A DNA stretch of 64,000 nucleotides from Treponema sp. J25 (GCF_004343725.1 NZ_PTQW01000032.1:9287-73286); one strand, 5' to 3'; numbered from the stretch's first letter, positions 20,216 through 63,995 are shown. Notes: generated by a model not told the origin, from the sequence alone. Translations and numbers: made by a program.

Positions 20216-23128
20216 ATGGGTGGGCTCGTCATTAAAGGAGACCTGGAACTCGTCCTGGACCCCCTGGAAGTAGAAGTGGCCCTCCGTTTTACTCCCCGTT
20301 CGCAGGGTCCCCAGTGGGGCGTCGAAGAAATTCTGAAACTTCTTTCCGAACGACAGATAGTTCCCCCACCATCTCCCAAGAAAATGGAAGAGGTTCTTTT
20401 TAATCTTGCCCGAGCGAAGAGTCCCGTTACGGAGGTACTCCTCCGGGGGCAGCCCCCCGAACCTACCGTCCCCGAACGGGTGCAATGGCTAGAACTGCCC
20501 ATTCCCGGTGAACTTACCCCCTACGTGGATGAAGCTCTGGAGCGCGCGGGGGCCCCCATCGTGTACCGAATAAAAACAGAAAAAATAAAACGAGAAACGG
20601 TGGTGACCAAACCGGGCCCCCTCCCCTTCCTGCCTCCTAAGAAAGAGGTGGTAATTACCTATGATAAAAAGGAAAGCCGCGAACGGGTTTTTGTAGATAC
20701 CACCGTACAGGACCGTCTGTATGCCGACAGGGGAGTAAAAGTAGGCACCCTTATTCCGGCTAAACCCGGCAAACCAGGAAAAAGTGTGTTTGGGAAACCC
20801 ATTCCGGTCTCGGAAAATGACAAAACAAACTTTCTCTTTGGAGAAGGCCTACGGGTTGAACGGAACGAAATATACTGTGACACAAGCGGTATCATTCGGG
20901 TTGGAGATGGCTGGGCCGACGTGGTCCCCCTTCCCCGGCATCGCTGGCGGGTAGAGCGGGGTACCGATGGCACCACCCTTTATCTCTACTTTGAACCGGG
21001 GCTTCGGGAACTCCCTTTGCCAGATCCCATAACCATAAAAGAAGCGGCCCGTTCCCAGGGGGCGGTGGATAAATATCTTATTTCTGACGAACTCATCAAA
21101 AAGGAACTCCAGAAGGCCCTTGAAACAGGTCAGCCCCTTTCGGCCTTTCCCCTCACGAGTTACCAGGAGGCGGATGCCCGGGTGGAAATAACCCCTGACG
21201 GCCTTCGGGCCTATTTGTATCTTCGCAAAGGGATGGCCGGCGCCCCTCCCCTGGAACCGAAACGTATTGGCGAAGTCATCCGCCAATCAGGCGTACGACT
21301 AAAGGACCCCCAAAAAGTAAAAACAGATATTCTTGCTTTTTTAAAGGGCCCCGCTACGGAACTTAGCGACTATATCCTTGCAGAAGGAACAGCCCCAAGT
21401 CGTGGAAAAGATAAAGAAATAAAGATAACCGTTTCCCCCTTAAATGAAGAGGAATGGCAAAAAAAGAAAGAAAGGCTCCAGCAGTGGCTTTCCCATCCTT
21501 TACAAAAAGGGATTTCCCTCCTCTTTCCTCCCGAGGAAGCAACGATAAGTGCGATGGTACAGAAGGGCAGCCGGGTAGCCCAATTAGTAAGCGCTGCTTC
21601 TGGCACACCGGGGATGGACGTGTATGGCCAGCCAATTCCCGCCATTCCTGGCAATGACCCGGACATGGACTATTCATCGGGCCTTTCCCTGATAAAAGGA
21701 GACCTGATCTGTGAACAGTCGGGCTTGCTCCTGATTAAACAGGTAGAACGAAGTTATGTGTTTCAACTCCTGGAGTATCAGGACGCTCGTATCACCGTCC
21801 AGATTCGAGAGGATGGGATGGAAGCCACCCTCAGCCTAGAGAAAGAACAGGGAGCGGGAACACCGCTTACCGCCGAAGGGGTCCGGCAGGCCCTTTCCGA
21901 CGCGGGAGTTCAGCGGGGCATCGATGGGAATGCGCTGGGGGACCTTATAAAAGAAGCCCTCGAACAGGGGAGCGCCGGTCCTCGGGTGGTAGCCCGGGGA
22001 GAACCGGCGATTCCTGCGGGCGGAGTAGCCCTGGTGTGGCAGCTACCATCCTTACAACAGGAAGGGGCTCCCATGGGTCGTCAACCCACAAAGGCACCTG
22101 TGGAAAAAGGACAAGAGGTAGCCCAGCTTATCAAAACAGGAGAAGCGGGACGGGCCGGCTTTGATGTACGGGGTAATGTGATAGAACCCGAAAAAGGGGA
22201 AGGCTTCCCTGTTAAATACGATGAGTCTTTGCAGGCCCTTCCCTTTGAACGGGGGCTTCGCCTTATCGCCGGCCGTTCAGGGGAACTGGTATTTGATGGG
22301 TGGAGTCTTACCATCCGTTCTCAGTATGTGGTTTCCGCCGATGTGGGCCCCCGCACGGGGAACATTAATTTTACAGGGGAGATTCGAATTGCCGGAAAGG
22401 TCCAGAGCGGTTTTGCCGTTTTCGGCGGTACCGACATTTACATCGGTGGACCGGTAGAAGGGGCCCTGGTTTCCGCGGGTGGGAAAGTGGTCATCCAACA
22501 GGGAATCATTGGTGGAGACCGGGGGGTGGTCCGGGCGCGCAAAACCATAGAGGCTTCTTTTGTGGAACGGGCAACCCTTTTAGCGGTGGAAAACATCGTC
22601 ATTAAAAACGGGGCCCTGGGCTGTAACATTAAAACCAATGGGAAGCTCCATCTTGTAAGCGAACGGGGAGTCCTGGTAGGAGGGGTCTGCAAGGCCCGGC
22701 TCGGCATTGATGTTATGCAGGTTGGTTCGGAACGGGGCATTCGGACCGAAATTTCCTTCGGTCAGGACTATCTGATTGCGGATCAGATAGAAGTATTAGA
22801 ACGGGAACAGGAAAAGGTGCGGCAGGCAATTCAAGCGCTGGATAAACAGATTAAACAGGCCCTTGCCTCGGGTAAAAACATCGATGGGCTGGGAGCCGAA
22901 AAGGTGCGGCTCCTTAAATTGCTCGAGAAATACGGCATGAAGTTGTTTACCCTGCGGGAAAAATTTGAAGAACATTTCCCCTCGGAAATTCGGGTGCGGG
23001 GGAATATCTTCCCCGGGGTGGTCATGGAAAGCCATGGTCGGTATTATGAAGTAAAGCAACGTCGAAGTCAGGTGGTCTTTTTCTTTAACCGGGAGACTGG
23101 CCGGATTCAAGAAAAATCTCTTGTGTAA
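20216..23128 (+). CDS. Large FapA/DUF342-family protein (β-helix region)
   Basis: A DUF342 β-helix repeat region (…GNINFTGEIRIAGKV…GTDIYIGGPVEG…GGKVVIQQGIIGG…) is followed by a C-terminal coiled coil. The gene begins 11 nt after the ATPase gene. Confidence 0.6.
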   Translation: MGGLVIKGDLELVLDPLEVEVALRFTPRSQGPQWGVEEILKLLSERQIVPPPSPKKMEEVLFNLARAKSPVTEVLLRGQPPEPTVPERVQWLELPIPGELTPYVDEALERAGAPIVYRIKTEKIKRETVVTKPGPLPFLPPKKEVVITYDKKESRERVFVDTTVQDRLYADRGVKVGTLIPAKPGKPGKSVFGKPIPVSENDKTNFLFGEGLRVERNEIYCDTSGIIRVGDGWADVVPLPRHRWRVERGTDGTTLYLYFEPGLRELPLPDPITIKEAARSQGAVDKYLISDELIKKELQKALETGQPLSAFPLTSYQEADARVEITPDGLRAYLYLRKGMAGAPPLEPKRIGEVIRQSGVRLKDPQKVKTDILAFLKGPATELSDYILAEGTAPSRGKDKEIKITVSPLNEEEWQKKKERLQQWLSHPLQKGISLLFPPEEATISAMVQKGSRVAQLVSAASGTPGMDVYGQPIPAIPGNDPDMDYSSGLSLIKGDLICEQSGLLLIKQVERSYVFQLLEYQDARITVQIREDGMEATLSLEKEQGAGTPLTAEGVRQALSDAGVQRGIDGNALGDLIKEALEQGSAGPRVVARGEPAIPAGGVALVWQLPSLQQEGAPMGRQPTKAPVEKGQEVAQLIKTGEAGRAGFDVRGNVIEPEKGEGFPVKYDESLQALPFERGLRLIAGRSGELVFDGWSLTIRSQYVVSADVGPRTGNINFTGEIRIAGKVQSGFAVFGGTDIYIGGPVEGALVSAGGKVVIQQGIIGGDRGVVRARKTIEASFVERATLLAVENIVIKNGALGCNIKTNGKLHLVSERGVLVGGVCKARLGIDVMQVGSERGIRTEISFGQDYLIADQIEVLEREQEKVRQAIQALDKQIKQALASGKNIDGLGAEKVRLLKLLEKYGMKLFTLREKFEEHFPSEIRVRGNIFPGVVMESHGRYYEVKQRRSQVVFFFNRETGRIQEKSLV

Positions 23129-26701: not shown

Positions 26702-28795
26702 ATGACCTTGACTCAAGAAGACGCCCTTTACGACTTTTTAGATATTACCACCAGCCCCTTCAGTGTACAGGATGCGGTAGCGGCCGTGCTTGCTCAGGAC
26801 GCATCTCTCAAGCGTAACCTTGAACGGGATATCCTTGCGTTTTTACAGGAGCGGCGCCTCGCATTCCCCATGAATGACGGCCGATGGCTATCCCGCTGCG
26901 GCTATTTTCAAAATGGGTATTTTCTTATTACTCCGAGCCGCTTAGAAATCCAAAATGGGATTCTTATTCCAGGGCACCGCTGCGTTCCCTTTGCCAACCC
27001 CTTATTGCTGCCCCACGAGTATACCTTTTACTGGAAAGAAAAAACCATTCCCTACACTACCACCGAAGGGGCCCCCGAGGATTTTTATCCCTACTATAGC
27101 ATTTTTGGAGAGGAATACGCCCCCCAGTACATAGCCCGGGATAACCCACAAAACGAAAGTCTGTATAACCAGGACCCCTACGAAGAACCCGCAGAAGTTT
27201 CAATCCATACGCTGGATATGCGTTCCTTCTATCGCGAGACAGGGGTGCTTCCCGGCCAGAGCATCCTTGTTCAACTCAAAAACTGGAAACTAGGCTATTT
27301 TGAGATTGTGTCGGTGGTTGCAGAGCCGCCGAAACAAGAAGAGGCAAACATCTGGATTGAAGCCCTGGACCGGGGATTTTCCCAATCCTTTAATAGCATT
27401 GGCCCCGGAAGCTCTACCGAGGAACAGGTCGCCTTTGCCTATTGGTTTGCCGGAAGCGATGTTCTGCACCATCCTGCCTATGCCTTAGAAACCTATCTTT
27501 ACGAAAAAACCAATGTGGTAGACGTGGTACCCTACGGCATGGAAAGCCGTTTTTGGTTTGTTGGGAAAGATATTCCCGACGGTTCTGCCGATGCTACCGT
27601 CACAGGACCACCGGATAAAACCGAATTGGAAGAACTTCTCTATGACTATGGGATTCCGGTTTCAGAATATGTGGTCCAATCCTACATTCGGGATGTGCTG
27701 GCCTTTCCTCCAGAAGAAGGCGATACCATAGTTCCTGCGGAATTCCCTCCCCAACAGCGGTTAATATGGACTGTTTTGTATCGATTGGTACCACCTCCCA
27801 TCAAACTAGAAGAGCAGGATTTCTTCTTTGTGTTCCAGTACATTCAAGAGGTGCTCCTCGAAATTCAGCCTAACTATAACCCCTTTACGGATCTTCCCCT
27901 GGCCACAATACGGCACAGCGCCGCCGAATTTCATACCGCTCTCATCGAACAGATGGCCCGTCTTTCCCGATCTCCTATTGAGATGGAATGGCTTCCCAAG
28001 CACACATTTATCGTCCTCTCCCAATTACAGTTCCATACGGCCCATATACTCGAAGAATTGGACACCGACGGGGGGCTTTCAGAGGTGGAGTTAGAAAGCC
28101 TCGAAATCAGCCTGGATGGCATGCTTGATACGTATCAAGAAGTGCGGCAACGGATAGAAGAAGCCCTGGAAGAGGGGCGCAAACAGCGCCTTTCCCTTGT
28201 AAGGCCAGAGAAAGAACGCTTTCCCCGGGCAGACGAAAAAACCGGCAACCTTGTTTCCGCCGTTGTGTTGCAGGCCTCATTACGGGGGACCGATGTATGG
28301 AGACGTTTCGTGGTCCCTCAAGAATGTTCCCTCGCGATGCTCCATCGAATTCTTACCATTCTTTTTGACTGGTCAGGGAACCTGTGGTATAGCTTTATAA
28401 TAGATGCTATGGTATACACAGAAAAACCCAATGAGGGGGGCTTTACGGTTCATACAACGACGGTAGACCAGCTTCTAAAAGAAAACATCCGGGAATTGGT
28501 GTATGATTATGGGGAAGATTCTCCCTGGGAAATTCATTTGCGGATAATGTATGATCTTACCCTTTCCCCAGAAGAAGCGCCATTCCAATGTCTTTTAGGG
28601 GAAAAGGCCGCCCCTCCAGAATACATTGGGGGCCCCTTGCGATTTCGAAGGTTTTTAGCCGCCCTGGGAGGAAGCGATACAGAACAGCGTCTTGCCCGTC
28701 ATGAATTAGGAGAGAATTTTAATCCCGACTTTTTTGATCGGGATCGATACAATCGTCAACTCGAAAGGTTGACCCAAGAAGTACGCAGCACCTAG
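26702..28795 (+). CDS. Large acidic hypothetical protein (697 aa), possibly carrying a pRiA4b ORF-3-like domain
   Basis: Long ORF with a good codon periodicity appearance. The motif …CSLAMLHRILTILFDWSGNLWYSF… resembles the PRiA4_ORF3 family; this is weak recall. Confidence 0.4.
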   Translation: MTLTQEDALYDFLDITTSPFSVQDAVAAVLAQDASLKRNLERDILAFLQERRLAFPMNDGRWLSRCGYFQNGYFLITPSRLEIQNGILIPGHRCVPFANPLLLPHEYTFYWKEKTIPYTTTEGAPEDFYPYYSIFGEEYAPQYIARDNPQNESLYNQDPYEEPAEVSIHTLDMRSFYRETGVLPGQSILVQLKNWKLGYFEIVSVVAEPPKQEEANIWIEALDRGFSQSFNSIGPGSSTEEQVAFAYWFAGSDVLHHPAYALETYLYEKTNVVDVVPYGMESRFWFVGKDIPDGSADATVTGPPDKTELEELLYDYGIPVSEYVVQSYIRDVLAFPPEEGDTIVPAEFPPQQRLIWTVLYRLVPPPIKLEEQDFFFVFQYIQEVLLEIQPNYNPFTDLPLATIRHSAAEFHTALIEQMARLSRSPIEMEWLPKHTFIVLSQLQFHTAHILEELDTDGGLSEVELESLEISLDGMLDTYQEVRQRIEEALEEGRKQRLSLVRPEKERFPRADEKTGNLVSAVVLQASLRGTDVWRRFVVPQECSLAMLHRILTILFDWSGNLWYSFIIDAMVYTEKPNEGGFTVHTTTVDQLLKENIRELVYDYGEDSPWEIHLRIMYDLTLSPEEAPFQCLLGEKAAPPEYIGGPLRFRRFLAALGGSDTEQRLARHELGENFNPDFFDRDRYNRQLERLTQEVRST

Positions 28796-56703: not shown

Positions 56704-56736
56704 TGACAATTGTACTATTGTTATAGTACAATGTCA
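56704..56736. promoter_or_regulatory. Near-perfect 33-bp palindrome TGACAATTGTACTAT-TGT-TATAGTACAATGTCA abutting the GntR gene start; candidate operator
   Basis: Read directly from the sequence. GntR operators are typically (T)GT-N-AC(A)-containing palindromes. Confidence 0.5.
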
Positions 56737-57030
56737 AGACAAAACAGGAAATTTCCCCGTGAAATAGGTGCGAAGCATGTACCGGTTACCGAGAAGCAGG
56801 TGAGGCGAATCATGGTTCGGACCAAATTACAAGCGATTTTCCCAGGTCGGAATCTGTCAAAGGCCCGACAGGAGCATAAAAAGTATCCGTATCTTCTTGC
56901 TGGCAATAAAATACGATATCCGAATCAGGTGTGGGCAACTGATCTGACCTATATCAAGCTGCCTTCGGGTCATGTCTATTTGATGGCAATCATTGTGGAC
57001 CTGCCCCGGTATAGTGGAGAGGTAGTTAAG
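56710..57030 (+). mobile_element. IS3-family transposase OrfB internal fragment (remnant A), truncated at both ends
   Basis: …VTEKQVRRIMVRTKLQAIF…KYPYLLAGNKIRYPNQVWATDLTYIKLPSGHVYLMAIIVD… is a typical IS3 OrfB N-terminal region. It is cut off at ~57026 exactly where the minus-strand copy ends. Confidence 0.7.
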
Positions 57031-57545
57031 CCTCTTTTCGTGCAACCATCGCGGGAGCTTTGTAGCCGTTCCGCGAATACAGCCTGATCCGATTATAGTA
57101 CACCTCGATGTATTCGAACACCGCCGACTTGACGTTCCGGCGGGATTTCCATCCGTCCAGTTCTTCCACTTCCCGTTTCAACGTCTTGAAAAAGGATTCC
57201 GCACAGGCATTGTCCTAGAGTTGCCCTTTCGCGACATGCTCCTGACCAGCATCGGAAGTGCCGCCGTCGAGGCTTCGCAAAATGCCGCCCCGCAGTGCAG
57301 GAAGGTTTGCGGCCGTTCCCTGCGTAGTACCCCGATGCGCTGACGGTAAGAACCTTTGCCATCTTCCCAATCGACCAACGATTCCGGTGGGCGTCCATGA
57401 ACCGAAAACTCATCTCTGTTTTCCGTTCACCGAGAAGATGGCTACCGCTTTTTTTAGTATTTCATTCGCCTCGCGGAGGTCCTCAACCTCGCGTAAGAGT
57501 CTGGTTATACTGAGCCCAGGTTGAAAGACCAAGGACGCGCAAGAA
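57026..57545 (-). mobile_element. IS3-family remnant B (minus strand): OrfA C-terminus, A7G slippery site, and OrfB disrupted by a frameshift and stop
   Basis: Minus-strand translation gives …LREVEDLREANEILKKAVAIFS… across CTAAAAAAAG, and …MDAHRNRWSIGKMAKVLTVSASGYY…ESFFKTLKREVEELDGWKSRRNVKSAVFEYIEVYYNRIRLYSRNGYKAPAMVARKEA* ending at 57026-28, with an internal TAG/frame break near 57215. Confidence 0.7.
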
Positions 57546-57552
57546 CTAAGGT

Positions 57553-58330
57553 GTGAATCGCCTCCTTGAGAGACAGGAGGAAGGAGGCGTAGAATCAGCC
57601 ATGCGCAAGCACTACGACAAAGAGTTCAAGGCCAAAGTAGCCTTGGATGCGGTACGGAGTGAGAAAACGATCCAGGAGATCGCGAAGGCCTTCGCGGTTC
57701 ATCCGAACCTCGTGAGCCTTTGGAAAAGACAGTTGCTCGAGAACGCGGGCAAGCTCTTTGAATAAAGAAGGGAAGGACAAGACAGCGGAAGAGGCCGAGC
57801 GGAAACAGGACCAGCTGTACAGGCAGATCGGTCAGCTCCAGGTGGAGAACGAGTTTCTAAAAAAAAGTACAGGCAACTGTACGGGACCGAGCCCAAGTTG
57901 TAGAGCCGGATGATCCGGAGCTTTCGATTCGGAGACAGTGCGAGCTTCTATCGATCAGCCGGACGGCCTACTACTACAAGCCGAAGAAGGAGGAGGAAAC
58001 CGAGGATCCCGAGCTGGGCATACTGCTCGCGATTCTGGACGAACTGCGGGAGCATCCCTTCTACGGGTACCGGAAGGTCGCCCTGGCGGTTTCGTACCTC
58101 GTGGTAAGCAGGAAACAGGTCCGCAGGATCATGGGAAAGACAGGCTGAGGACTATGTACCCTGGGGAACAGCTGTCCAAGCCGGACCGGAAGCATCCGAA
58201 GTATCCGTACCTGTTGAGGGGAAAGACGATCTGGATGCCCAATCAGGTATGGGCCTCCGAGATGAACCCCAATGAACCGGAGAAACACGGAGGGCCTCTT
58301 TACCCTGGACCGCAGGCTAAAACTGGTGCT
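57553..58330 (+). mobile_element. IS3-family remnant C (plus strand): OrfA with a frameshift, poly-A slippery site, and a 5' part of OrfB with a further frameshift, 3'-truncated
   Basis: MRKHYDKEFKAKVALDAVRSEKTIQEIAKAFAVHPNLVSLWKRQLLENAGKLFE*. The next frame gives …EEAERKQDQLYRQIGQLQVENEFLKKS…, then …RQCELLSISRTAYYYKP…GYRKVALAV…, then …KYPYLLRGKTIWMPNQVWASEM, after which homology is lost. Confidence 0.7.
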
Positions 58331-58344
58331 AACGTAAGGGGGCT

Positions 58345-59085
58345 CTAATCTACTACTTTTTCGTATTCGATGCTGACTATTTGAATGCCCGGCGTAGTGC
58401 AGATTATTTTATAATATTTGCTATAGCCCTTTTCAGCAAAAACAAGACCGAAATATTCCGCATTGGGCTGAAGGTCTACACTATAGAAAAGATTTTTTTC
58501 AAGTACATCGAGCCATTGTTTTCCCCTTTGGGCGTATTGGGAGACTGCCTCGAAATTTCTTTGTCTTGCCAGTTCTGCTGCTGTAGGGTCATAATAACTG
58601 GTTGAGCTGCTGTAGATACCGGAAACAGAACCATATCGAGATCCGCCGTATATGGTTCCGGTAGTGGATGTGTAACCTCTGCCGGCATCTATAGAACTAG
58701 CTACAGCTCCCAGTGCAAGCAGCACTGCCCCTGCGGTATATTCTGCTTTTTCTTTTCTATAATATTCTTCCGATGTATAAACCTTAAGTTTTTTCCAGTT
58801 TACCCTATCGTCGCTTTCATAAACAGAAAAATGGGTATCTGTAAATGAAATTGTTTTTCCTGAATAATTTTTTATTGCAATTTTTATCATTAAATCCTCA
58901 TCAACATAGACAGGATAGATGATCATACCAATATTTTGGTCGGTATAAACAGGGTAGTAAGCAGATCTTTCCTGAATAACCTGAATCTGATCATTTTGAA
59001 TGGGTACAAAATGGTATGTTGCGCATGAAATTACAGAAAGTACCAGTAATAACAAAATGCTCATCCTGCAGTAATGATTTTTCAC
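58345..59085 (-). CDS. Hypothetical lipoprotein, AT-rich gene with a Tyr/Ser/Gly-rich segment
   Basis: Signal sequence plus lipobox-like …LLLVLSVISC; composition visibly lower in GC than its neighbours. It is the second gene of the σ54-promoter-driven unit. Confidence 0.5.
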   Translation of the reverse strand: MKNHYCRMSILLLLVLSVISCATYHFVPIQNDQIQVIQERSAYYPVYTDQNIGMIIYPVYVDEDLMIKIAIKNYSGKTISFTDTHFSVYESDDRVNWKKLKVYTSEEYYRKEKAEYTAGAVLLALGAVASSIDAGRGYTSTTGTIYGGSRYGSVSGIYSSSTSYYDPTAAELARQRNFEAVSQYAQRGKQWLDVLEKNLFYSVDLQPNAEYFGLVFAEKGYSKYYKIICTTPGIQIVSIEYEKVVD

Positions 59086-59100
59086 AAGATTCTCCTTGCT

Positions 59101-59643
59101 TTATTGAATAGCTTCTATGCTCGAATACCAAGGGAAATAACTCTTATATTTGCTAAGGTAATACTCCAGCCCTGTGGTGTTAAAAAAAAGGGTAATGGGA
59201 TCTTGATAAGAAGGGGTACAGCGGACTACGAATCTATCGGCTTTTGCTATTTGTTGTAATAGTTCAGAGATGTCTCCTATGTAAAAGCTTGCTTCCCCAT
59301 CGGTCGAATTAGACCAGAATGTTCTTTGGGCTGGATTATTTCCAACTCTAAAATCAATATATTTACCCCGAAGATTAAAATATTCTATATCACTTCCCAA
59401 AAAGGTATTCCAGATAATAAATAGCTCGATTGTTTCAGAAGTAGCTCGAATTACCAAACGTTCTTTAGTTTTAAAATAATTTTTTGGCCCATCTGCCTCA
59501 AGGATTAAGAATACTTTTGATTCGTCGGTAATTGGGTCCGTTTCTTCATAATCTATCCATTCTGAATCGGGTGGTGGGCTTTGGGCCGGGATAGAAGAAA
59601 GGGAAACCAGCATAGCCACGATCATAACAAATGTTCGTTTCAT
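59101..59643 (-). CDS. Hypothetical secreted protein, AT-rich gene
   Basis: Start set at MKRTFVMIVAMLVSLSSIPAQ, which is preceded by an AGAGGA ribosome-binding site; the ORF-track extension runs to 59787. No family was recognised. Confidence 0.5.
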   Translation of the reverse strand: MKRTFVMIVAMLVSLSSIPAQSPPPDSEWIDYEETDPITDESKVFLILEADGPKNYFKTKERLVIRATSETIELFIIWNTFLGSDIEYFNLRGKYIDFRVGNNPAQRTFWSNSTDGEASFYIGDISELLQQIAKADRFVVRCTPSYQDPITLFFNTTGLEYYLSKYKSYFPWYSSIEAIQ

Positions 59644-59667
59644 ATTTATTCCTCTTTTTTGTGTTAA

Positions 59668-59683
59668 TGCAAATATCATGCCA
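59668..59683 (-). promoter_or_regulatory. σ54-type promoter on the minus strand (TGGCAT-N5-TTGCA, -24 GG / -12 GC) about 25 nt upstream of the 59643 start codon
   Basis: Plus strand reads TGCAAATATCATGCCA, whose reverse complement is TGGCATGATATTTGCA, against the consensus TGGCAC-N5-TTGCW. Spacing to the RBS and ATG is correct. The promoter is divergent from a σ54 enhancer-binding-protein gene. Confidence 0.55.
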
Positions 59684-59758
59684 AGTGTTTTTTGGTGGAA
59701 AGACCCTGGCGGGGTACGTAAAAAGCAGTATTTCATAGCACTAAGGGCCAGGAAAACA

Positions 59759-59794
59759 GTAACGATAGTTTCATAGTTACGGAACAAAAGTTAC
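59759..59794. repeat. 36-nt nested palindrome GTAACGATAGTTTCATAGTTACGGAACAAAAGTTAC (copy 1), ~95-120 bp upstream of the σ54 promoter; candidate enhancer (UAS) or CRISPR-repeat-like element
   Basis: Outer arms GTAAC/GTTAC and inner arms GTT(T/C)C/GGAAC. A second copy lies at 62647-62682 with 28 of 36 positions identical. Confidence 0.55.
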
Positions 59795-59885
59795 GAAGCA
59801 TTATGAAAACTAATCTTATAGGGGTGTCTAAAATAAAAAGAATGGTGGCTGCTGTGGCACCTGTAATTGGCATGTTTTATGCAGA

Positions 59886-61484
59886 TTGTCTGCCATGGAT
59901 TCTCATGATACTATGAAAGATATGGCAAAGACAGTCTCGGTTCTGGTGACCTTTATAGGAAATCGGGATCCCTATCCACAGGATGATGAAACTCCGGGGC
60001 CTATTCTATCCTTTTTATTGCAGCATCCGGTAGATATCGTTTATATGCTTTGCAGCAGCGCTGCCTACCATGAGCGAGCCCAAGATTTAATAAGAGAAGC
60101 TAAAGATGAAGGATTGGTCACCAAATTCGAAACGGTAGATTTTTATGTTCCCGATGTGGTCGATTACGGAATAATCTGGGAACGGTTGCTCATGAGTCTT
60201 ACGGATATACAACAGCGTGTTCATGAACATCTTCCAGTACGGATAAGTGTAGAATGGCTTTTTTTACTGGACTCCGGAACCCCGCAGATGAAATCCTGCC
60301 TTTTTCTTGCTGCCGCGACACAACAATTTCCGGCTCGTCTTTACCAGGGCATTCCGCCAGCCTTCTCCGGTGGAGCCTATAAGAGCCGCCAAGTAAACAT
60401 AGAACCTTTTTCTTTTATGCGGCCTGCATTCATTGTGGAAGGGAAGGTTCCAAATGTATATGAGGCTGATATAGGAGCGAATACAAATACCACTGGGAGT
60501 AATGCTCCCAAATATCGGGAAGCAGAAGAACGGGCATTGCGTATTGCCCGATATGAAGACCCGGTACTGCTTTTAGGCGAGACCGGTACAGGAAAAACCA
60601 GAATAGCCCGTCAGATACATGATGCGAGTCCCCGGAAAAGCGGGCCATTTGTAGAAGTAAATTGTTCAGCTATTCCGCGGGATCTAGCAGAAAGCGAACT
60701 TTTTGGTCATGTCCAGGGAGCCTTTACCGGAGCCAATAAAAATCGAAGCGGCAAAATCCGGGCTGCTCAAGGGGGGACCCTGTTCCTTGACGAAATCGGA
60801 GACCTGCCGCTGGAACTGCAGGTTAAGCTCCTTAAGGTGTTGGAAGAACACACCCTGTATCCAGTTGGCTCCGATGAACCTGTTACGGTTAATGTCCGGC
60901 TTATCGCGGCAACCCACCGGGATTTAGAACACATGGTAAAAGATGGCAGTTTTCGTAAGGACTTGTACCAGCGCCTTAAGGTTGTTGTCATTCGGCTTCC
61001 GCCTCTGCGGGACCGCAAAGAAGATATTTTACCTCTGGCTGACTATTTCCTTGATGAACGGAACCGTAAATATGGGGAACATAAGGAGCTTTCTGAGGCA
61101 GTAAAAAGCCGTTTGCTTGAATACTCGTGGCCCGGAAATGTCCGGGAATTGCGGAATACGATAGACAGCGCCTGTTCCATATCCCAGAAGGAGCTCATCG
61201 AGCTGGATGTATTGCCCGAAGAATTACAAGCTGGCACCTGGAGTAAGTATGGAATGCACGGCGCGTCTGGTGATATGCCGGGGGAGATCCTGCCTCCGGA
61301 AGGCTTGGATCTGCGGGCCCGACTGCTCCAAATGGAATGGAGTTATGTAGCGGCGGCTTTGCGCAGAACCGGAGGTAACCGGGAAGCGGCGGCAAAACTT
61401 TTGGGCATGACTGGTCATGCGTTTCGCAAGGCCCTACGGGAACGGCTTGCCGGTTTTTTCGAAAACGAATGGGAAGGAGAATAA
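59886..61484 (+). CDS. RtcR-family σ54-dependent transcriptional activator: N-terminal CARF domain, σ54-interaction AAA+ domain, C-terminal HTH
   Basis: AAA+ motifs [14 protein letters not shown] loop, …LFLDEIGDL…. The N-terminus (…[10 protein letters not shown]…[28 protein letters not shown]…) aligns in my recall with the E. coli RtcR CARF region (…HITTGTHVAQICWFLLAEARYLPARLIQ…). At 532 aa it matches RtcR in length. The exact start is uncertain (Met at 59886, 59895 or 59922). Confidence 0.8.
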
Positions 61485-61485
61485 G

Positions 61486-62628
61486 ATGCCGGAACGACAG
61501 GTACTCATTTGTACGGTAGGAACCAGTCTTTTTTCTGGGAATCTGGAACGGCTTCCCTTCGAAAGAGACAATCCCCCGAATTGGGAGAACCTTAAAAGGA
61601 CATATCAAGAAAAAAATTGGAGGGCCCTCGCAAGAGAATTAGCGTGCCTTCCGCCAGATAGCCGGGTCTGTGGTGCAGAAATTAATACCATCCACGAACT
61701 TATTACCCAAAAAGGACTTCCTTTGAGGGCCATCCATTTTCTTGTCTCGGATACGCCGGCAGGAGAAGAAACAGGAAAGGTACTTCAATATTACTTTAAA
61801 AATCATTCTTCCCATCATTTTAGTGTCGTAGAATATCACCGAATCGAAAAATTACAGGACCAACATCCTCAGGATTTTAAAGTGTATGGGTTACGTAACC
61901 TGGCCCGGGAAATTGGCACTATCATTCAGCGGATAGGTGGCCCCGAAAAGGTGCTTATCGATGCCACCGGTGGTTACAAGGCCCAAATTGCCATTGGATT
62001 GCTTATCGGCCAGGTGCTCAATATTCCGGTCATGTATAAACATGAACGGTTTTCTCAGATTATCGATTTTCCCCCTTTGCCGGTTTCTTTTGATTACAGC
62101 CTTTTTGGAACCTATGCGGGGCTTTTGCACTATCTTGAAAAAGGTATTGTCACGGTAGATTCGGAAGAACTAGATCTAACCGAAGAGGATGAAAAACTCC
62201 GGGTCCTCCTGGAAGAAACAGATGTGGGGAACAGACGACTTTTTGCCTTAAGCCCCATTGGTCAAATATACCTTCTTGGATACCGATTACACCATCAACG
62301 GGAAGTAACAGAACTGGCTTCAGCTCAAAATAAAGAGGTGCCCCACTTTTCGGATGACCACTATCCCGAAGGTTTTAAGGACTATGTGAAAAAGATTTGG
62401 AGAGAAGTCCCCTGGATTGTAACCATAAAAAGCCTTCCTTATTACCAACAACGGTCCATTAAAGGGAGGGGTTTTACGGTACGAGAAATAGAAGGGCAGC
62501 TTCGACTGGTTGGCACCTATCGGGATAGAAACGACTTCGGAGCCCGCTTTGAGATTATTCCCACCGATACTTCCCGGGAAGCCCTTATATACGCGGTGGA
62601 ACTGTTAAATGAAAGATACGGAGATTAA
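61486..62628 (+). CDS. CARF-domain protein (Csx1/Csm6/Csa3-like sensor domain) with a non-HEPN C-terminal region (wHTH-like segment plus ~100 aa unknown)
   Basis: CARF signatures …VLICTVGTS… and …VLIDATGGYK…. The ATG at 61486 is preceded by a GGAAGGAG ribosome-binding site and begins 1 nt after the activator stop codon. No Rx4-6H motif is present in the C-terminal half. Confidence 0.7.
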   Translation: MPERQVLICTVGTSLFSGNLERLPFERDNPPNWENLKRTYQEKNWRALARELACLPPDSRVCGAEINTIHELITQKGLPLRAIHFLVSDTPAGEETGKVLQYYFKNHSSHHFSVVEYHRIEKLQDQHPQDFKVYGLRNLAREIGTIIQRIGGPEKVLIDATGGYKAQIAIGLLIGQVLNIPVMYKHERFSQIIDFPPLPVSFDYSLFGTYAGLLHYLEKGIVTVDSEELDLTEEDEKLRVLLEETDVGNRRLFALSPIGQIYLLGYRLHHQREVTELASAQNKEVPHFSDDHYPEGFKDYVKKIWREVPWIVTIKSLPYYQQRSIKGRGFTVREIEGQLRLVGTYRDRNDFGARFEIIPTDTSREALIYAVELLNERYGD

Positions 62629-62646
62629 AGGAAAAGGATGTGTGGC

Positions 62647-62688
62647 GTAACAAAAGTTCCATAACGACGGAACAAAGGTTACTTTTTT
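62647..62688 (+). terminator. Copy 2 of the 36-nt nested palindrome (GTAACAAAAGTTCCATAACGACGGAACAAAGGTTAC) followed by TTTTTT; likely intrinsic terminator and/or protein-binding site
   Basis: Lies 19 nt after the CARF gene stop, with a T-run directly 3' of the stem. Confidence 0.5.
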
Positions 62689-62907
62689 AAGCACCCCTAT
62701 TTTAGGAACGCCGGGTTGAATTTCCGTGTTTGAGTCGCCTACAGCCGGACTACCGTTCCAAAGTTCCTACAGGGAAGTGGTTTTTTCTTCTCGTATAAAT
62801 AAGAGGATGTTAGTAGTATGGCGGATAGAGTTTTTAGAGATATTAGAGATTATAGAAATATCAAGTCATTTAACCATTTCTAATATAAGAAATTAAACAC
62901 AAAAACA

Positions 62908-62937
62908 TTGACAATTTTTAAATCTCAGAAGTATCAT
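62908..62937 (+). promoter_or_regulatory. Candidate σ70-type promoter upstream of cas6 (TTGACA-18 nt-TATCAT)
   Basis: Sequence match only. The 18-nt spacer and the closeness of the -10 to the AGGAG ribosome-binding site make it uncertain. Confidence 0.3.
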
Positions 62938-62950
62938 AGGAGTAACTATC

Positions 62951-63874
62951 ATGGGCCATCAGCTTACCAGCCTTTCACTCAATTGTACTATCACTTTTCA
63001 GAAAGCCGTTAGAGTAGATACCTATCCACCCTTTGTTATCCGAAGTGTGTTGGGCTACCATCTTAAACGAATGCACTGTGTAAGCCACCAGACCCCCTGT
63101 CAGGACTGCGTTTTCCGGCGCACCTGTGCCTATGTGTTTTTGTTCGAGAGTATTATCGACAAGGATACCCCGGTTTTAGAGGGCCGCGATCGAGCAAGTC
63201 ATCCCTTTAGGCTCATTGCCCACACTGAACCGGGTAGGGAGGCACGGGAACTTCCCTTAACGGTTCAGCTATTTGGTCGAGGGGTGGAATATGTGCCCCA
63301 CGTGGTCTTTGCATTACGGGAAGGAGGGAAAGGGGGACTTTTTCGGGAGCGGGTCCCCTACAAAATCAGCGTGAACAATGTAAAGGGAGAGGCAATTCTT
63401 GAAGGGGACCGGCTCGTGCAGTCCCGTCTGAGCACTGAGCGGTATAGCTATCCGGACGGCGACGAGATGGAAAGCCGAACGCTTCATATTTACTGTCACA
63501 GTCCCCTGCGTTTTAAGGTGAATAATCGCCTAACCAGCGATTTTTCTGGTCGGGACCTGATAGCCGCCACGAGCCGGCATCTGGACACGCTGTTTTTTCT
63601 TTATGGGAATGGCACAGAATTTGCAAAAGAAATACAAAACCAAAAGTGGGAGGGAGAAGTAAAAATAACCCATCGGGACCTGGCATGGCGGGATTACCCG
63701 CGGTTCTCCCGCCGCCAGGGAACTCCGATGAAACTGGGCGGCCACGTGGGACGCCTTACCCTAAGTGGAAGCGCCCCCCGCTGGGTCTGGGAAACCCTGC
63801 ACCTGGCAGGCCGCATCGGCACCGGCAAAAACACAAGCTTCGGCTTTGGCCATATCGAAGTAACGGAGGAGTGA
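62951..63874 (+). CDS. cas6: CRISPR-associated endoribonuclease Cas6
   Basis: Duplicated ferredoxin-like (RAMP) organisation with the C-terminal glycine-rich loop GRIGTGKNTSFGFGHIE characteristic of Cas6; length 307 aa. Confidence 0.7.
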   Translation: MGHQLTSLSLNCTITFQKAVRVDTYPPFVIRSVLGYHLKRMHCVSHQTPCQDCVFRRTCAYVFLFESIIDKDTPVLEGRDRASHPFRLIAHTEPGREARELPLTVQLFGRGVEYVPHVVFALREGGKGGLFRERVPYKISVNNVKGEAILEGDRLVQSRLSTERYSYPDGDEMESRTLHIYCHSPLRFKVNNRLTSDFSGRDLIAATSRHLDTLFFLYGNGTEFAKEIQNQKWEGEVKITHRDLAWRDYPRFSRRQGTPMKLGGHVGRLTLSGSAPRWVWETLHLAGRIGTGKNTSFGFGHIEVTEE

Positions 63875-63881
63875 GGGGAAG

Positions 63882-63995
63882 ATGGAATTTTATATTGAAC
63901 GTTATAAAAACAGAGAAGAACTTGTATTTGATTGTGAAGTCATTACACCAATGTTTTTATCCGGTGCGGACCCTAAAACATATAATGAGCCCTAG
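63882..63995 (+). CDS. Start of a RAMP-superfamily (Cmr1/Cas7-like) gene; very AT-rich and terminated by an in-frame TAG after 37 codons within the window (fragment or pseudogene?)
   Basis: MEFYIERYKNREELVFDCEVITPMFLSGADPKTYNEP*. The motif ITP-F-GGADP resembles RAMP N-terminal motifs. The window ends at 64000. Confidence 0.3.
   Translation: MEFYIERYKNREELVFDCEVITPMFLSGADPKTYNEP

Follow-up and report, generated by a model that had tools for sequence, protein, structure and literature searches.

The last 5.7 kb of a 64,000-nucleotide stretch of the genome of Treponema sp. J25 (NZ_PTQW01000032.1:9287-73286; hereafter the window, with positions counted from its first letter) probably encode a CARF-gated σ54 regulon that would include the type III CRISPR genes themselves and thus constitute an inducible type III locus in Treponema. 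On the plus strand, the gene of a σ54 activator with a CARF sensor is followed by the gene of a 380-aa CARF protein, a 322-nt spacer, cas6, and the start of a RAMP gene, and two genes for exported proteins, lipoA and lipoB, are located divergently on the minus strand. In the proposed mechanism, the activator would bind to a 36-bp dyad between two back-to-back σ54 promoters, and occupation of its CARF domain would allow its AAA+ ring to remodel the σ54 holoenzyme at three promoters. Promoter P2 would serve the activator and a co-transcribed Cami1-like effector, resulting in positive autoregulation, P3 in the 3' part of cas6 would serve the genes of the Cmr effector complex, and the divergent P1 would serve the two exported/lipoprotein genes; cas6 would additionally be transcribed from its own σ70-like promoter. 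If the ligand is a cyclic oligoadenylate (cOA), detection of target RNA would lead via cOA to the production of more type III machinery, Cami1-like effector, and envelope proteins. As σ54 promoters are tightly off until they are activated, the CRISPR effector genes would become inducible. An earlier inspection of this DNA (the original prediction) had named four elements, a divergent σ54 promoter, an RtcR-family activator with a CARF sensor, a translationally coupled second CARF protein, and cas6 with a RAMP gene start. All of these are present with small corrections, and three further kinds of promoter and enhancer features, P2, P3, and the dyads, had been missed.

The activator (59895-61484, plus strand) is a CARF-AAA+-helix-turn-helix (HTH) enhancer-binding protein of the RtcR_PspF2 family according to Pfam, NCBIfam, PADLOC, and sequence motifs. 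The database gene call starts at 59895 (529 aa, on two short contigs), whereas alignment of homologs suggests 59922 (520 aa) as the likely true start. Pfam identifies Sigma54_activat (PF00158, 1.3e-66), AAA_lid_14, and HTH_8 (3.9e-06), and the AAA+ domain has the Walker A motif, the Walker B motif LFLDEI, and the GAFTGA loop (60717-60734) that characterize σ54 enhancer-binding proteins. A Fis-type C-terminal HTH, -24/-12 promoters, and an upstream dyad enhancer complete this picture, with DNA binding being predicted. The PADLOC profile RtcR_PspF2--CARF_AAA_HTH (PDLC01995) matches residues 6-504 with 4.5e-121, followed by RtcR with 3.1e-71 and PspF1 with 1.8e-65, and the same ranking is found for the relatives P0129-P0160. 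The best NCBIfam model is RtcR (NF038308), but its 358.6 bits are below the cut-off of 650. RtcR proper was ruled out by this score, by the lack of adjacent rtcB/rtcA genes, and by the preference for RtcR_PspF2 in PADLOC, so that the predicted combination of a CARF domain with a σ54 activator stands, whereas the assignment to RtcR itself does not. The absence of rtcBA, on the other hand, had been predicted correctly, as tblastn searches with E. coli RtcA and RtcB revealed neither gene in the 64 kb (best E 0.15 and 0.51, respectively). The same proteins gave no rtcA or rtcB in loci L001-L023, and a scan of the metagenome loci for these markers was likewise negative.

Relatives of the activator are few. 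Among 5.8 billion proteins, a word-based search yielded four relatives of the N-terminal domain, and phmmer, run exhaustively against 1.84 billion cluster representatives, yielded 104 matches at E<=1e-3. All 20 loci from species-representative genomes are in metagenome-assembled genomes of Spirochaetota. The activator belongs to a rare family, seen in this analysis in Spirochaetota only, whose members stand at the head of variable defence operons. The genes downstream of it encode BREX, Hma (HmaA and HmaB at E = 0), a UvrD-like helicase with DruE, or type III CRISPR systems. RtcR-like CARF-NtrC-HTH proteins without a link to Rtc have been described by Makarova et al. (2014), who tied them to restriction-modification systems, predicted that they activate downstream (defence) genes via σ54, and noted that the family is not typically found near cas genes (PMC4012209). 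RtcR homologs at the head of defence superoperons have been reported by Bell et al. (2024) (PMC11090510).

Within the family, the type III-linked branch has the order activator, Cami1-like gene, cas6, and type III genes in at least seven lineages, with activator identities to the window protein down to about 45%. The type III genes are of the Cmr type in the window, L034, and L035, in L038, L042, and L086, and in the L004 group, and of the Csm type in L029 and L031 and in L036 and L037. In the L004 group, a Cad1 deaminase gene is inserted between the activator gene and the Cami1-like gene. The order is activator-cas6-cas10 in L065, and in L022 and L079 a type III-A operon is divergent from the activator. 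In L022, the divergent σ54 promoter directly heads cas6-cad1-cas10-csm2-5; a NUDIX-like open reading frame (ORF) of 219 aa (L022:5676-6335, minus strand) is located between cad1 and cas10 of this operon. The neighbourhood comparison that had been proposed as a check therefore turned out in favour of a real association, since homologs adjoin cas genes in at least seven lineages and are not confined to places away from them. In two loci only an N-terminal stub of the activator is left, which breaks off within the CARF domain (L025:9707-9979, 81 aa; L026:1392-1694, 100 aa), and a Cami1-like-cas6-csm-cas1-cas2 operon comes after it. The L025 stub keeps its σ54 promoter TGGCATGCTTTTTGCA, and both loci keep the site inside cas6.

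Exact matches to the σ54 consensus TGGCAY-N5-TTGCW occur twice in the 64 kb, at P1 and P3, compared to 0.07 expected. P1 (TGGCATGATATTTGCA; 59668-59683, minus strand) lies 24 nt upstream of the ATG of lipoA, as had been claimed for the divergent promoter, and an equivalent on the minus strand is present in the divergent spacer of most homologous loci, about 70 of which were compared. P2 (TGGCATGTTTTATGCA; 59868-59883, plus strand), which is assigned to the activator's own operon, has one mismatch to the consensus. In at least 17 of the 22 loci examined first, and likewise in the sets added later, a GG-N10-GC match precedes the activator start by 15-70 nt; by our own estimate, this relaxed pattern should turn up about once in 33 kb on each strand. 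Back-to-back promoters of the P1 and P2 type recur in most of the homologous loci. Between P1 and P2 lies the 36-bp dyad UAS-1 (59759-59794), which consists of two 14-mers 22 bp apart (GTAACgataGTTTC-N8-GGAACaaaaGTTAC) and follows the consensus GTAAC-N4-GTTYC-N8-GRAAC-N4-GTTAC. The matrix for this dyad was built from part of the sites, and among loci outside the training set the dyad is also present between the back-to-back promoters of L011, L012, L019, L021, L029-L033, and L086. The only matches of at least 19 bits in the window are at 59781 (UAS-1) and at 62647 and 62669, the latter two forming the second dyad UAS-2 (GTAACaaaaGTTCC-N8-GGAACaaagGTTAC; 62647-62682) in the spacer before cas6. 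UAS-2 is common to the window and L035, a near-identical strain from the metagenome scan that was used as a stand-in for the sequence beyond the window end, and is not found in other lineages. The dyads are candidate enhancers that would be bound by the activator, and activation of P1, P2, and P3 would depend on it.

The third promoter lies within cas6 (62951-63874, plus strand; Pfam CRISPR_Cas6, 3.3e-10), which is syntenic with cas6 of L004, L029, L031, and L035-L042. P3 (TGGCACAGAATTTGCA; 63610-63625, plus strand) is an exact consensus match 257 nt upstream of cmr1. It is found at the identical cas6 codon position in six lineages (window/L035, L029/L031, L036/L037, L038/L086, L042, and L025/L026), regardless of whether Cmr or Csm genes come next. 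The spacers differ (AGAAT, GGAAA, GGAAT, GGATT, AGATT, and AAAAT), whereas TGGCAC and TTGCW are fixed. In L004 (14835-14850) and also in L039 (13004), an exact σ54 site with the same spacer as P3 (TGGCATAGAATTTGCT) lies within the 3'-terminal part of the Cami1-like gene, 181 nt upstream of cas6, where it encodes G-I-E-F-A in a different protein, and this site looks like a convergent internal promoter.

Directly upstream of cas6, a σ70-like promoter (TTGACA-18-TATCAT; 62908-62937, plus strand) is the best such consensus match of the region 58-64 kb, with 11 of 12 positions. No σ54 promoter was found between UAS-2 and cas6 on reading the spacer and in consensus scans, both exact and with one mismatch. 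This spacer has 322 nt in the window, compared to 34-130 nt in other lineages, and the additional DNA, which carries UAS-2 and the σ70-like promoter, gives the impression of an inserted promoter cassette. It also contains an AT-rich 18-nt tandem repeat in two copies (62826-62861).

The second CARF protein is encoded directly after the activator (61486-62628, plus strand; 380 aa). Its ATG is 2 nt past the activator stop, and no HEPN motif R-x4-6-H was seen when the C-terminal part of the translation was read by eye, in agreement with the description of a coupled protein lacking this motif. It has a match to Pfam Cas_APE2256 (PF09651) with 1.6e-32, and PADLOC assigns it over its full length to CARF7--CARF_DUF2103 (5.5e-97), with CARF_RelE as the second profile (4.2e-55, residues 5-331). 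It is 100% identical to a protein recorded for Treponema sp. J25, and homologs are found in at least 1600 clusters from many phyla with about 50-55% identity. An AlphaFold (AF2) model built from 42 sequences (pLDDT 87.9, pTM 0.85) has as its best solved match in Foldseek the mRNase Cami1 in its apo form (8phb) and in its cA4-bound form on the ribosome (8phj), with an E-value of 3e-14, about 408 aligned columns, a TM of 0.52, and 17-19% identity; CARF ring nucleases come next. The model displays the Cami1 architecture of a CARF7/APE2256 CARF domain followed by a winged HTH and a RelE-fold/DUF2103 domain. Based on this model and the profiles, the protein is predicted to be a Cami1-like ancillary effector and thus of a kind that is already known (PMC11229360). 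It had originally been regarded as part of the σ54 route, which does not hold for such an effector. The Cami1-like-cas6-cas10 cassette also exists without the activator (L028 and L088).

The CARF sensor of the activator spans about residues 10-170 and contains the loop motifs GNRDPYP (59958-59978) and DSGTPQMK (60270-60293). Pfam matches to this domain are weak (Csm6_CARF 0.004, RtcR 0.08), but a domain profile (A4) searched against the PDB retrieves StCsm6' (8pcw, 4e-15) and EiCsm6 (6tug, 5e-14) at positions 2-147, covering the whole CARF domain. Together with the full-length PADLOC match, this confirms that the N-terminus is a CARF domain, for which a comparison with CARF profiles had been suggested. 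GNRDP aligns to G-N10-T11-D-P of EiCsm6, and SGTPQMK to S(A/G)TPQ(I/M)(K/E), with TPQMK corresponding to T-P-Q110-I-K112 of StCsm6' after deduction of an offset of 4 in the chain index. In StCsm6', cA6 is contacted by A107, Q110, and K112 of the β4 loop and, in the first loop, by position 10/T11, and N10 and T11 have been described as absolutely conserved with EiCsm6 (PMC10702470). Of the cA6 contacts in Csm6, the N, Q, and K are kept in the activator and T11 is replaced by Arg; S39, D73, H77, N139, and R167 are outside the mapping. The weaker matches of the exhaustive search, which represent the nearest relatives other than activators, are CARF1 CARF-HEPN proteins with GNRDP or GYRDP and SSGTPQM. 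E. coli RtcR aligns only from the CARF β4 loop onward (IHITTGTHVAQICWFLL), with 36% identity through the AAA+ domain, and has THVAQ in the place of the Q and K that the activator retains in the loop contacting cA6.

The residue after the β1 Gly, which is equivalent to N10, differs with the genomic context. In type III-linked activators it is Asn in 12 cases, Tyr in two, and Met in one (Asn or Tyr in 14 of 15), and in activators not adjoining type III genes it is Met in 28 cases, Leu in two, and Asn in one (Met or Leu in 30 of 31). Of the latter 31 activators, 25 are located next to BREX, Hma, UvrD-like, or Druantia-like genes and six are in an unidentified context. The notion of a CARF pocket that is invariant across defence contexts was dropped after this residue had been counted in all loci. 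In a neighbour-joining tree without bootstrap, most type III-linked activators are in one clade, L022 is basal, and there are two separate Met clades. The Cmr2 protein of the near-identical strain L035 keeps the GGDD cyclase motif.

By homology, the sensor of the activator looks like a Csm6-type CARF and may bind cOA. The match to the Csm6 CARFs, the loops, the N10 pattern, and the GGDD motif of Cmr2 make a cOA synthesized by Cas10 the leading candidate for the ligand in the type III-linked branch, a choice that remains tentative and falls slightly short of even confidence. RNA with a 2',3'-cyclic phosphate (2',3'-cP) of the kind sensed by RtcR is the main alternative ligand and is considered rather unlikely. 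Cyclic-nucleotide-to-σ54 signalling as originally proposed is accordingly plausible because the sensor resembles the cOA-binding CARF of Csm6. The full model, in which a Csm6-type CARF on a σ54 AAA+ protein reads the cOA made by Cas10, amplifies the type III system and its effector via the promoter in cas6, switches on envelope proteins, and has been re-tuned in the Met/Leu branches, is possible, and can be put forward with limited confidence.

Several observations weigh against the regulon or its suggested ligand. The promoters and enhancers are putative, being consensus matches backed by conservation, and rpoN was not found among the ten large window ORFs that were checked. P3 overlaps a coding motif, G-T-(E/D/K)-(F/I)-A, so that part of its conservation could be due to selection at the protein level; other Cas6 homologs differ in this region. 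A search of the 400 bp preceding P3 in seven lineages revealed no convincing enhancer-like sites; the nearest enhancer is UAS-2 at -940 in the window and otherwise UAS-1 at a distance of about 3.8 kb. That enhancers can act over kilobases is established for NtrC-type activators and is an assumption for P3. In the J25 genome the output may be non-functional, as cmr1 breaks off after codon 33. Regarding the ligand, there are exceptions to the residue pattern, namely Met in the type III-linked L065 and Asn in L044 with its unidentified context, and since the pattern follows clades it represents about two evolutionary events and not 46 independent observations. The other pocket motifs do not differ in the activators that adjoin BREX, Hma, and Druantia-like systems, none of which produces cOA. 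Finally, cA4 is suggested by the Cami1-like and Cad1 effectors encoded at the same loci, whereas the closest solved CARF relatives bind cA6.

The explanation that competes most seriously retains the regulon but has the CARF domain sense a generic cue of infection or RNA damage instead of a cOA made by Cas10. An unchanged rest of the pocket next to systems that make no cOA fits such a generic signal and keeps RNA damage in play, as the family heads BREX, Hma, UvrD-like, and Druantia-like operons lacking a cyclase with near-identical pocket motifs. Moreover, the alignment with E. coli RtcR from the β4 loop onward connects the activator to a protein whose reported ligand is tRNA halves with 2',3'-cP (PMC7790460, PMC10159003), and a signal of the 2',3'-cP type has been proposed by Bell et al. 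for RtcR homologs at defence superoperons (PMC11090510). The feedback loop would persist in this case, because RelE-type cleavage by the Cami1-like effector and cleavage by Cmr4/Csm3 would produce such RNA ends. However, the CARF domain is closer to the cA6-binding CARFs of Csm6 than to RtcR and keeps the Q and K in place of THVAQ, the N10-equivalent residue co-varies with the type III context, and the RtcR score is far from the NCBIfam cut-off. A generic cue is regarded as unlikely, though appreciable.

In the model of the original prediction, signalling has been rewired to a secreted-protein operon that replaces rtcBA, with the cas genes acting only as the source of the signal. The operon consists of lipoA (59101-59643, minus strand), the first gene under P1, which encodes an exported protein of 180 aa with a signal peptide and no Cys, and lipoB (58345-59085, minus strand), which starts 15 nt after lipoA and encodes a predicted lipoprotein of 246 aa with the lipobox VISC. 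An initial start of lipoA at a TTG (59787) was replaced by the ATG at 59643. Neither protein belongs to a Pfam, NCBIfam, or PADLOC family, and lipoA homologs were found in only four clusters among 5.8 billion proteins. GC content drops to 38.5% at 59001-60000, comprising lipoA/lipoB and the divergent spacer, compared to about 50% window-wide, which suggests a separate acquisition of these genes. A role as output is supported by the exact σ54 promoter in front of lipoA-lipoB and by the rare homologs, since in the two clusters with contigs (L029, L031-L033) lipoA is likewise divergent from activator-effector-cas6-cas10 and preceded by P1 where the contig reaches; lipoB is kept beside lipoA in L029. 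Furthermore, some small exported or membrane protein is encoded in the divergent slot of every type III-linked locus examined. The occupant of this slot varies, however, and in other type III-linked lineages it is a Borrelia_P13-like protein (PF05628, 3.4e-15), a secreted protein of 186 aa, or an outer-membrane-protein-like protein of 191 aa. In many loci linked to BREX, Hma, or Druantia-like systems (L006, L010, L046, L049, L055, L062-L064, L066, and L074) the slot is occupied by a WYL and transglutaminase-like protein, which places two predicted ligand-sensing defence regulators back to back. P2 and P3 are at least as conserved as P1 and face the genes of the activator, the effector, and the type III system, and the type III operon of L022 is itself under the divergent promoter. 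The secreted-protein operon is thus retained as one predicted output behind an exact promoter, but as the sole output it is improbable given P2 in at least 17 of 22 loci, P3 in six lineages, and the changing slot. The theme shared by type III-linked loci is a small envelope protein under a putative σ54 promoter, with pspF-pspA as the nearest parallel.

An equally improbable reading holds that the locus is decayed or a chance juxtaposition within a defence island, that the activator controls only itself and its divergent partner, and that the P3 motif is a by-product of the encoded peptide. This reading also takes the type III module of the J25 genome to be broken, given the truncated cmr1 and IS fragments close by. 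The RAMP gene start predicted behind cas6 is a 5' fragment of the type III-B gene cmr1 with 33 codons (63882-63980, plus strand), identified by synteny with L004 and L035. It is identical in frame to the intact L035 gene through 63980 and departs from it at 63981, and the final 20 nt (TATAATGAGCCCTAGAAACT) are unique within the window and bring a stop codon. This break could be an insertion in Treponema sp. J25 or an assembly break. At the other end, transposase-like ORF fragments are present at 56.7-58.3 kb. Furthermore, P3 is located in coding sequence without a nearby enhancer in most lineages, and the effector-cas6 cassette can do without the activator. These points are opposed by a gene order that is kept in at least seven lineages and across type III subtypes, and by the near-identical strain L035, in which intact cmr1-cmr2(GGDD)-cmr3 genes take the place of the fragment. 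The type III-B gene set of the window thus amounts to cas6 and 33 codons of cmr1, whereas the full set with GGDD is found in L035 and L004. UAS-2 upstream of cas6 and the promoters retained next to the activator stubs (P2 in L025, P3 in L025 and L026) argue in the same direction. The synonymous sites of P3 also do not favour a peptide by-product. In a codon alignment of seven cas6 genes with 50-89% amino-acid identity, only four of 63 four-fold sites at invariant residues have an invariant third base, and the GGC of the Gly codon in P3 is one of these four; by contrast, the seven genes differ at the third base of Thr, a position within the P3 spacer. This pattern favours selection at the nucleotide level.

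That the activator is an RtcR ortholog with rtcBA targets elsewhere in the genome is highly improbable. RtcR is the best NCBIfam match and has the same architecture, but the score is below the cut-off, PADLOC prefers RtcR_PspF2 to RtcR, rtcA and rtcB are absent from the window and from all loci searched, and the cognate promoters and enhancers are local.

The CARF-gated σ54 regulon can be compared with several known systems. With RtcR of E. coli and Salmonella, the activator shares the CARF-AAA+(NtrC/PspF type)-HTH architecture, a divergent σ54 target promoter, and the homology from the β4 loop through the AAA+ domain, and by analogy its CARF domain would presumably restrain the ATPase until a signal arrives. 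It differs in keeping the TPQxK and GNxDP loops that are lost in RtcR and in its proposed targets, which are defence genes, envelope genes, and the activator itself instead of rtcBA. The RtcR_PspF2/RtcR-like defence regulators are the activator's own family (PMC4012209, PMC11090510). In the respective papers they are tied to restriction-modification systems (PMC4012209) and CoCoNuT superoperons (PMC11090510), whereas in the present loci an entire branch is associated with type III CRISPR; the mapping of putative promoters, an enhancer, and a cas6-internal promoter, and a pocket residue that tracks the type III context, are added by the present analysis. The original statement that the system is not a described one consequently holds for the wiring but not for the activator, which is a member of a catalogued family. 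In the literature covered, which did not extend to the 2020 CARF census (Makarova et al., NAR), no account was found of an activator of this kind that is located at type III loci or senses cOA, and the type III context and the wiring of P1, P2, P3, the dyad, and the Csm6-type sensor were likewise not found described.

The Csm6 CARFs (8pcw, 6tug), which are sensors of cA6, are the closest solved relatives of the sensor and share the G-N-x-D-P and (S/A)-T-P-Q-x-K loops. Their output is a HEPN RNase, whereas the sensor of the activator, in which T11 is Arg and ligand binding is putative, is fused to a σ54 AAA+ ATPase and an HTH. Csa3 is also a CARF-gated transcription factor, which binds cA4 and raises CRISPR/cas expression, and it has been proposed to provide positive feedback upon detection of foreign RNA (PMC8284326, PMC8844856). 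In contrast to the activator, it is a simple CARF-winged HTH protein, mainly archaeal and linked to type I-A systems, without AAA+ motor and σ54. In the CalpL-CalpT-CalpS system, a cA4 signal of type III also ends in the usage of alternative-sigma promoters (PMC11229360), but it does so through a SAVED-Lon protease that cuts an anti-sigma factor and frees an ECF-like sigma factor, with no component in common. The effector of the window resembles Cami1, a cA4-activated ribosome-dependent mRNase, in its full-length fold, in its match to the CARF_RelE profile, and in heading type III cassettes. Its best profile is the sister group CARF7--CARF_DUF2103, and its sequence identity to Cami1 is low. 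PspF/pspA is another divergent arrangement of a σ54 activator and an envelope-related target operon, and a PspF-like AAA+ domain is part of the family name; the PspF analogy has also been drawn by Makarova et al. (2014) (PMC4012209). PspF, however, lacks a sensor domain and is controlled by binding of PspA, and lipoA and lipoB have no similarity to Psp proteins.

If the activator responds to cOA, it would be the first cOA-dependent enhancer-binding protein. Type III signalling is known to act at the post-translational level on nucleases, proteases, deaminases, and membrane proteins. Two routes to transcription are known, Csa3 with cA4 and the sigma release by CalpL/T/S, and a CARF-gated σ54 activator would add a third. 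Intracellular RNA sensing would be linked to the cell surface through small envelope proteins, and the sister branches, in which the pocket Asn is replaced by Met or Leu, would have been re-tuned to another signal on moving to BREX, Hma, and Druantia-like operons. With three promoters, one 36-bp enhancer, and one sensor of 170 residues, the locus offers a small test system. It makes the question of whether cOA drives a σ54 activator directly testable, and it opens to testing what RtcR-like CARFs at defence islands sense and whether one sensor scaffold can be re-tuned between defence systems. For annotation, the putative promoter inside cas6 is a caution that regulatory signals of cas operons can sit within coding sequences.

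No CRISPR array is present within the 64-kb window, although one may lie past its end, and no Rfam family was found in 58-64 kb. Directly past lipoB, the region 56710-58350 contains short overlapping ORFs on both strands that resemble transposase fragments, among them an ORF at 57553-57765 (MRKHYDKEFKAKVALDAV...) that we take to be IS3 OrfA-like. On the corresponding side, L029-L031 have two Glyco_hydro_17 genes and an ORF of 125 aa. The remainder of the window consists of ordinary chromosomal genes; ORFs unrelated to the locus include those for a PRiA4_ORF3-domain protein of 697 aa (26702-28795) and a FapA-domain protein of 970 aa (20216-23128).

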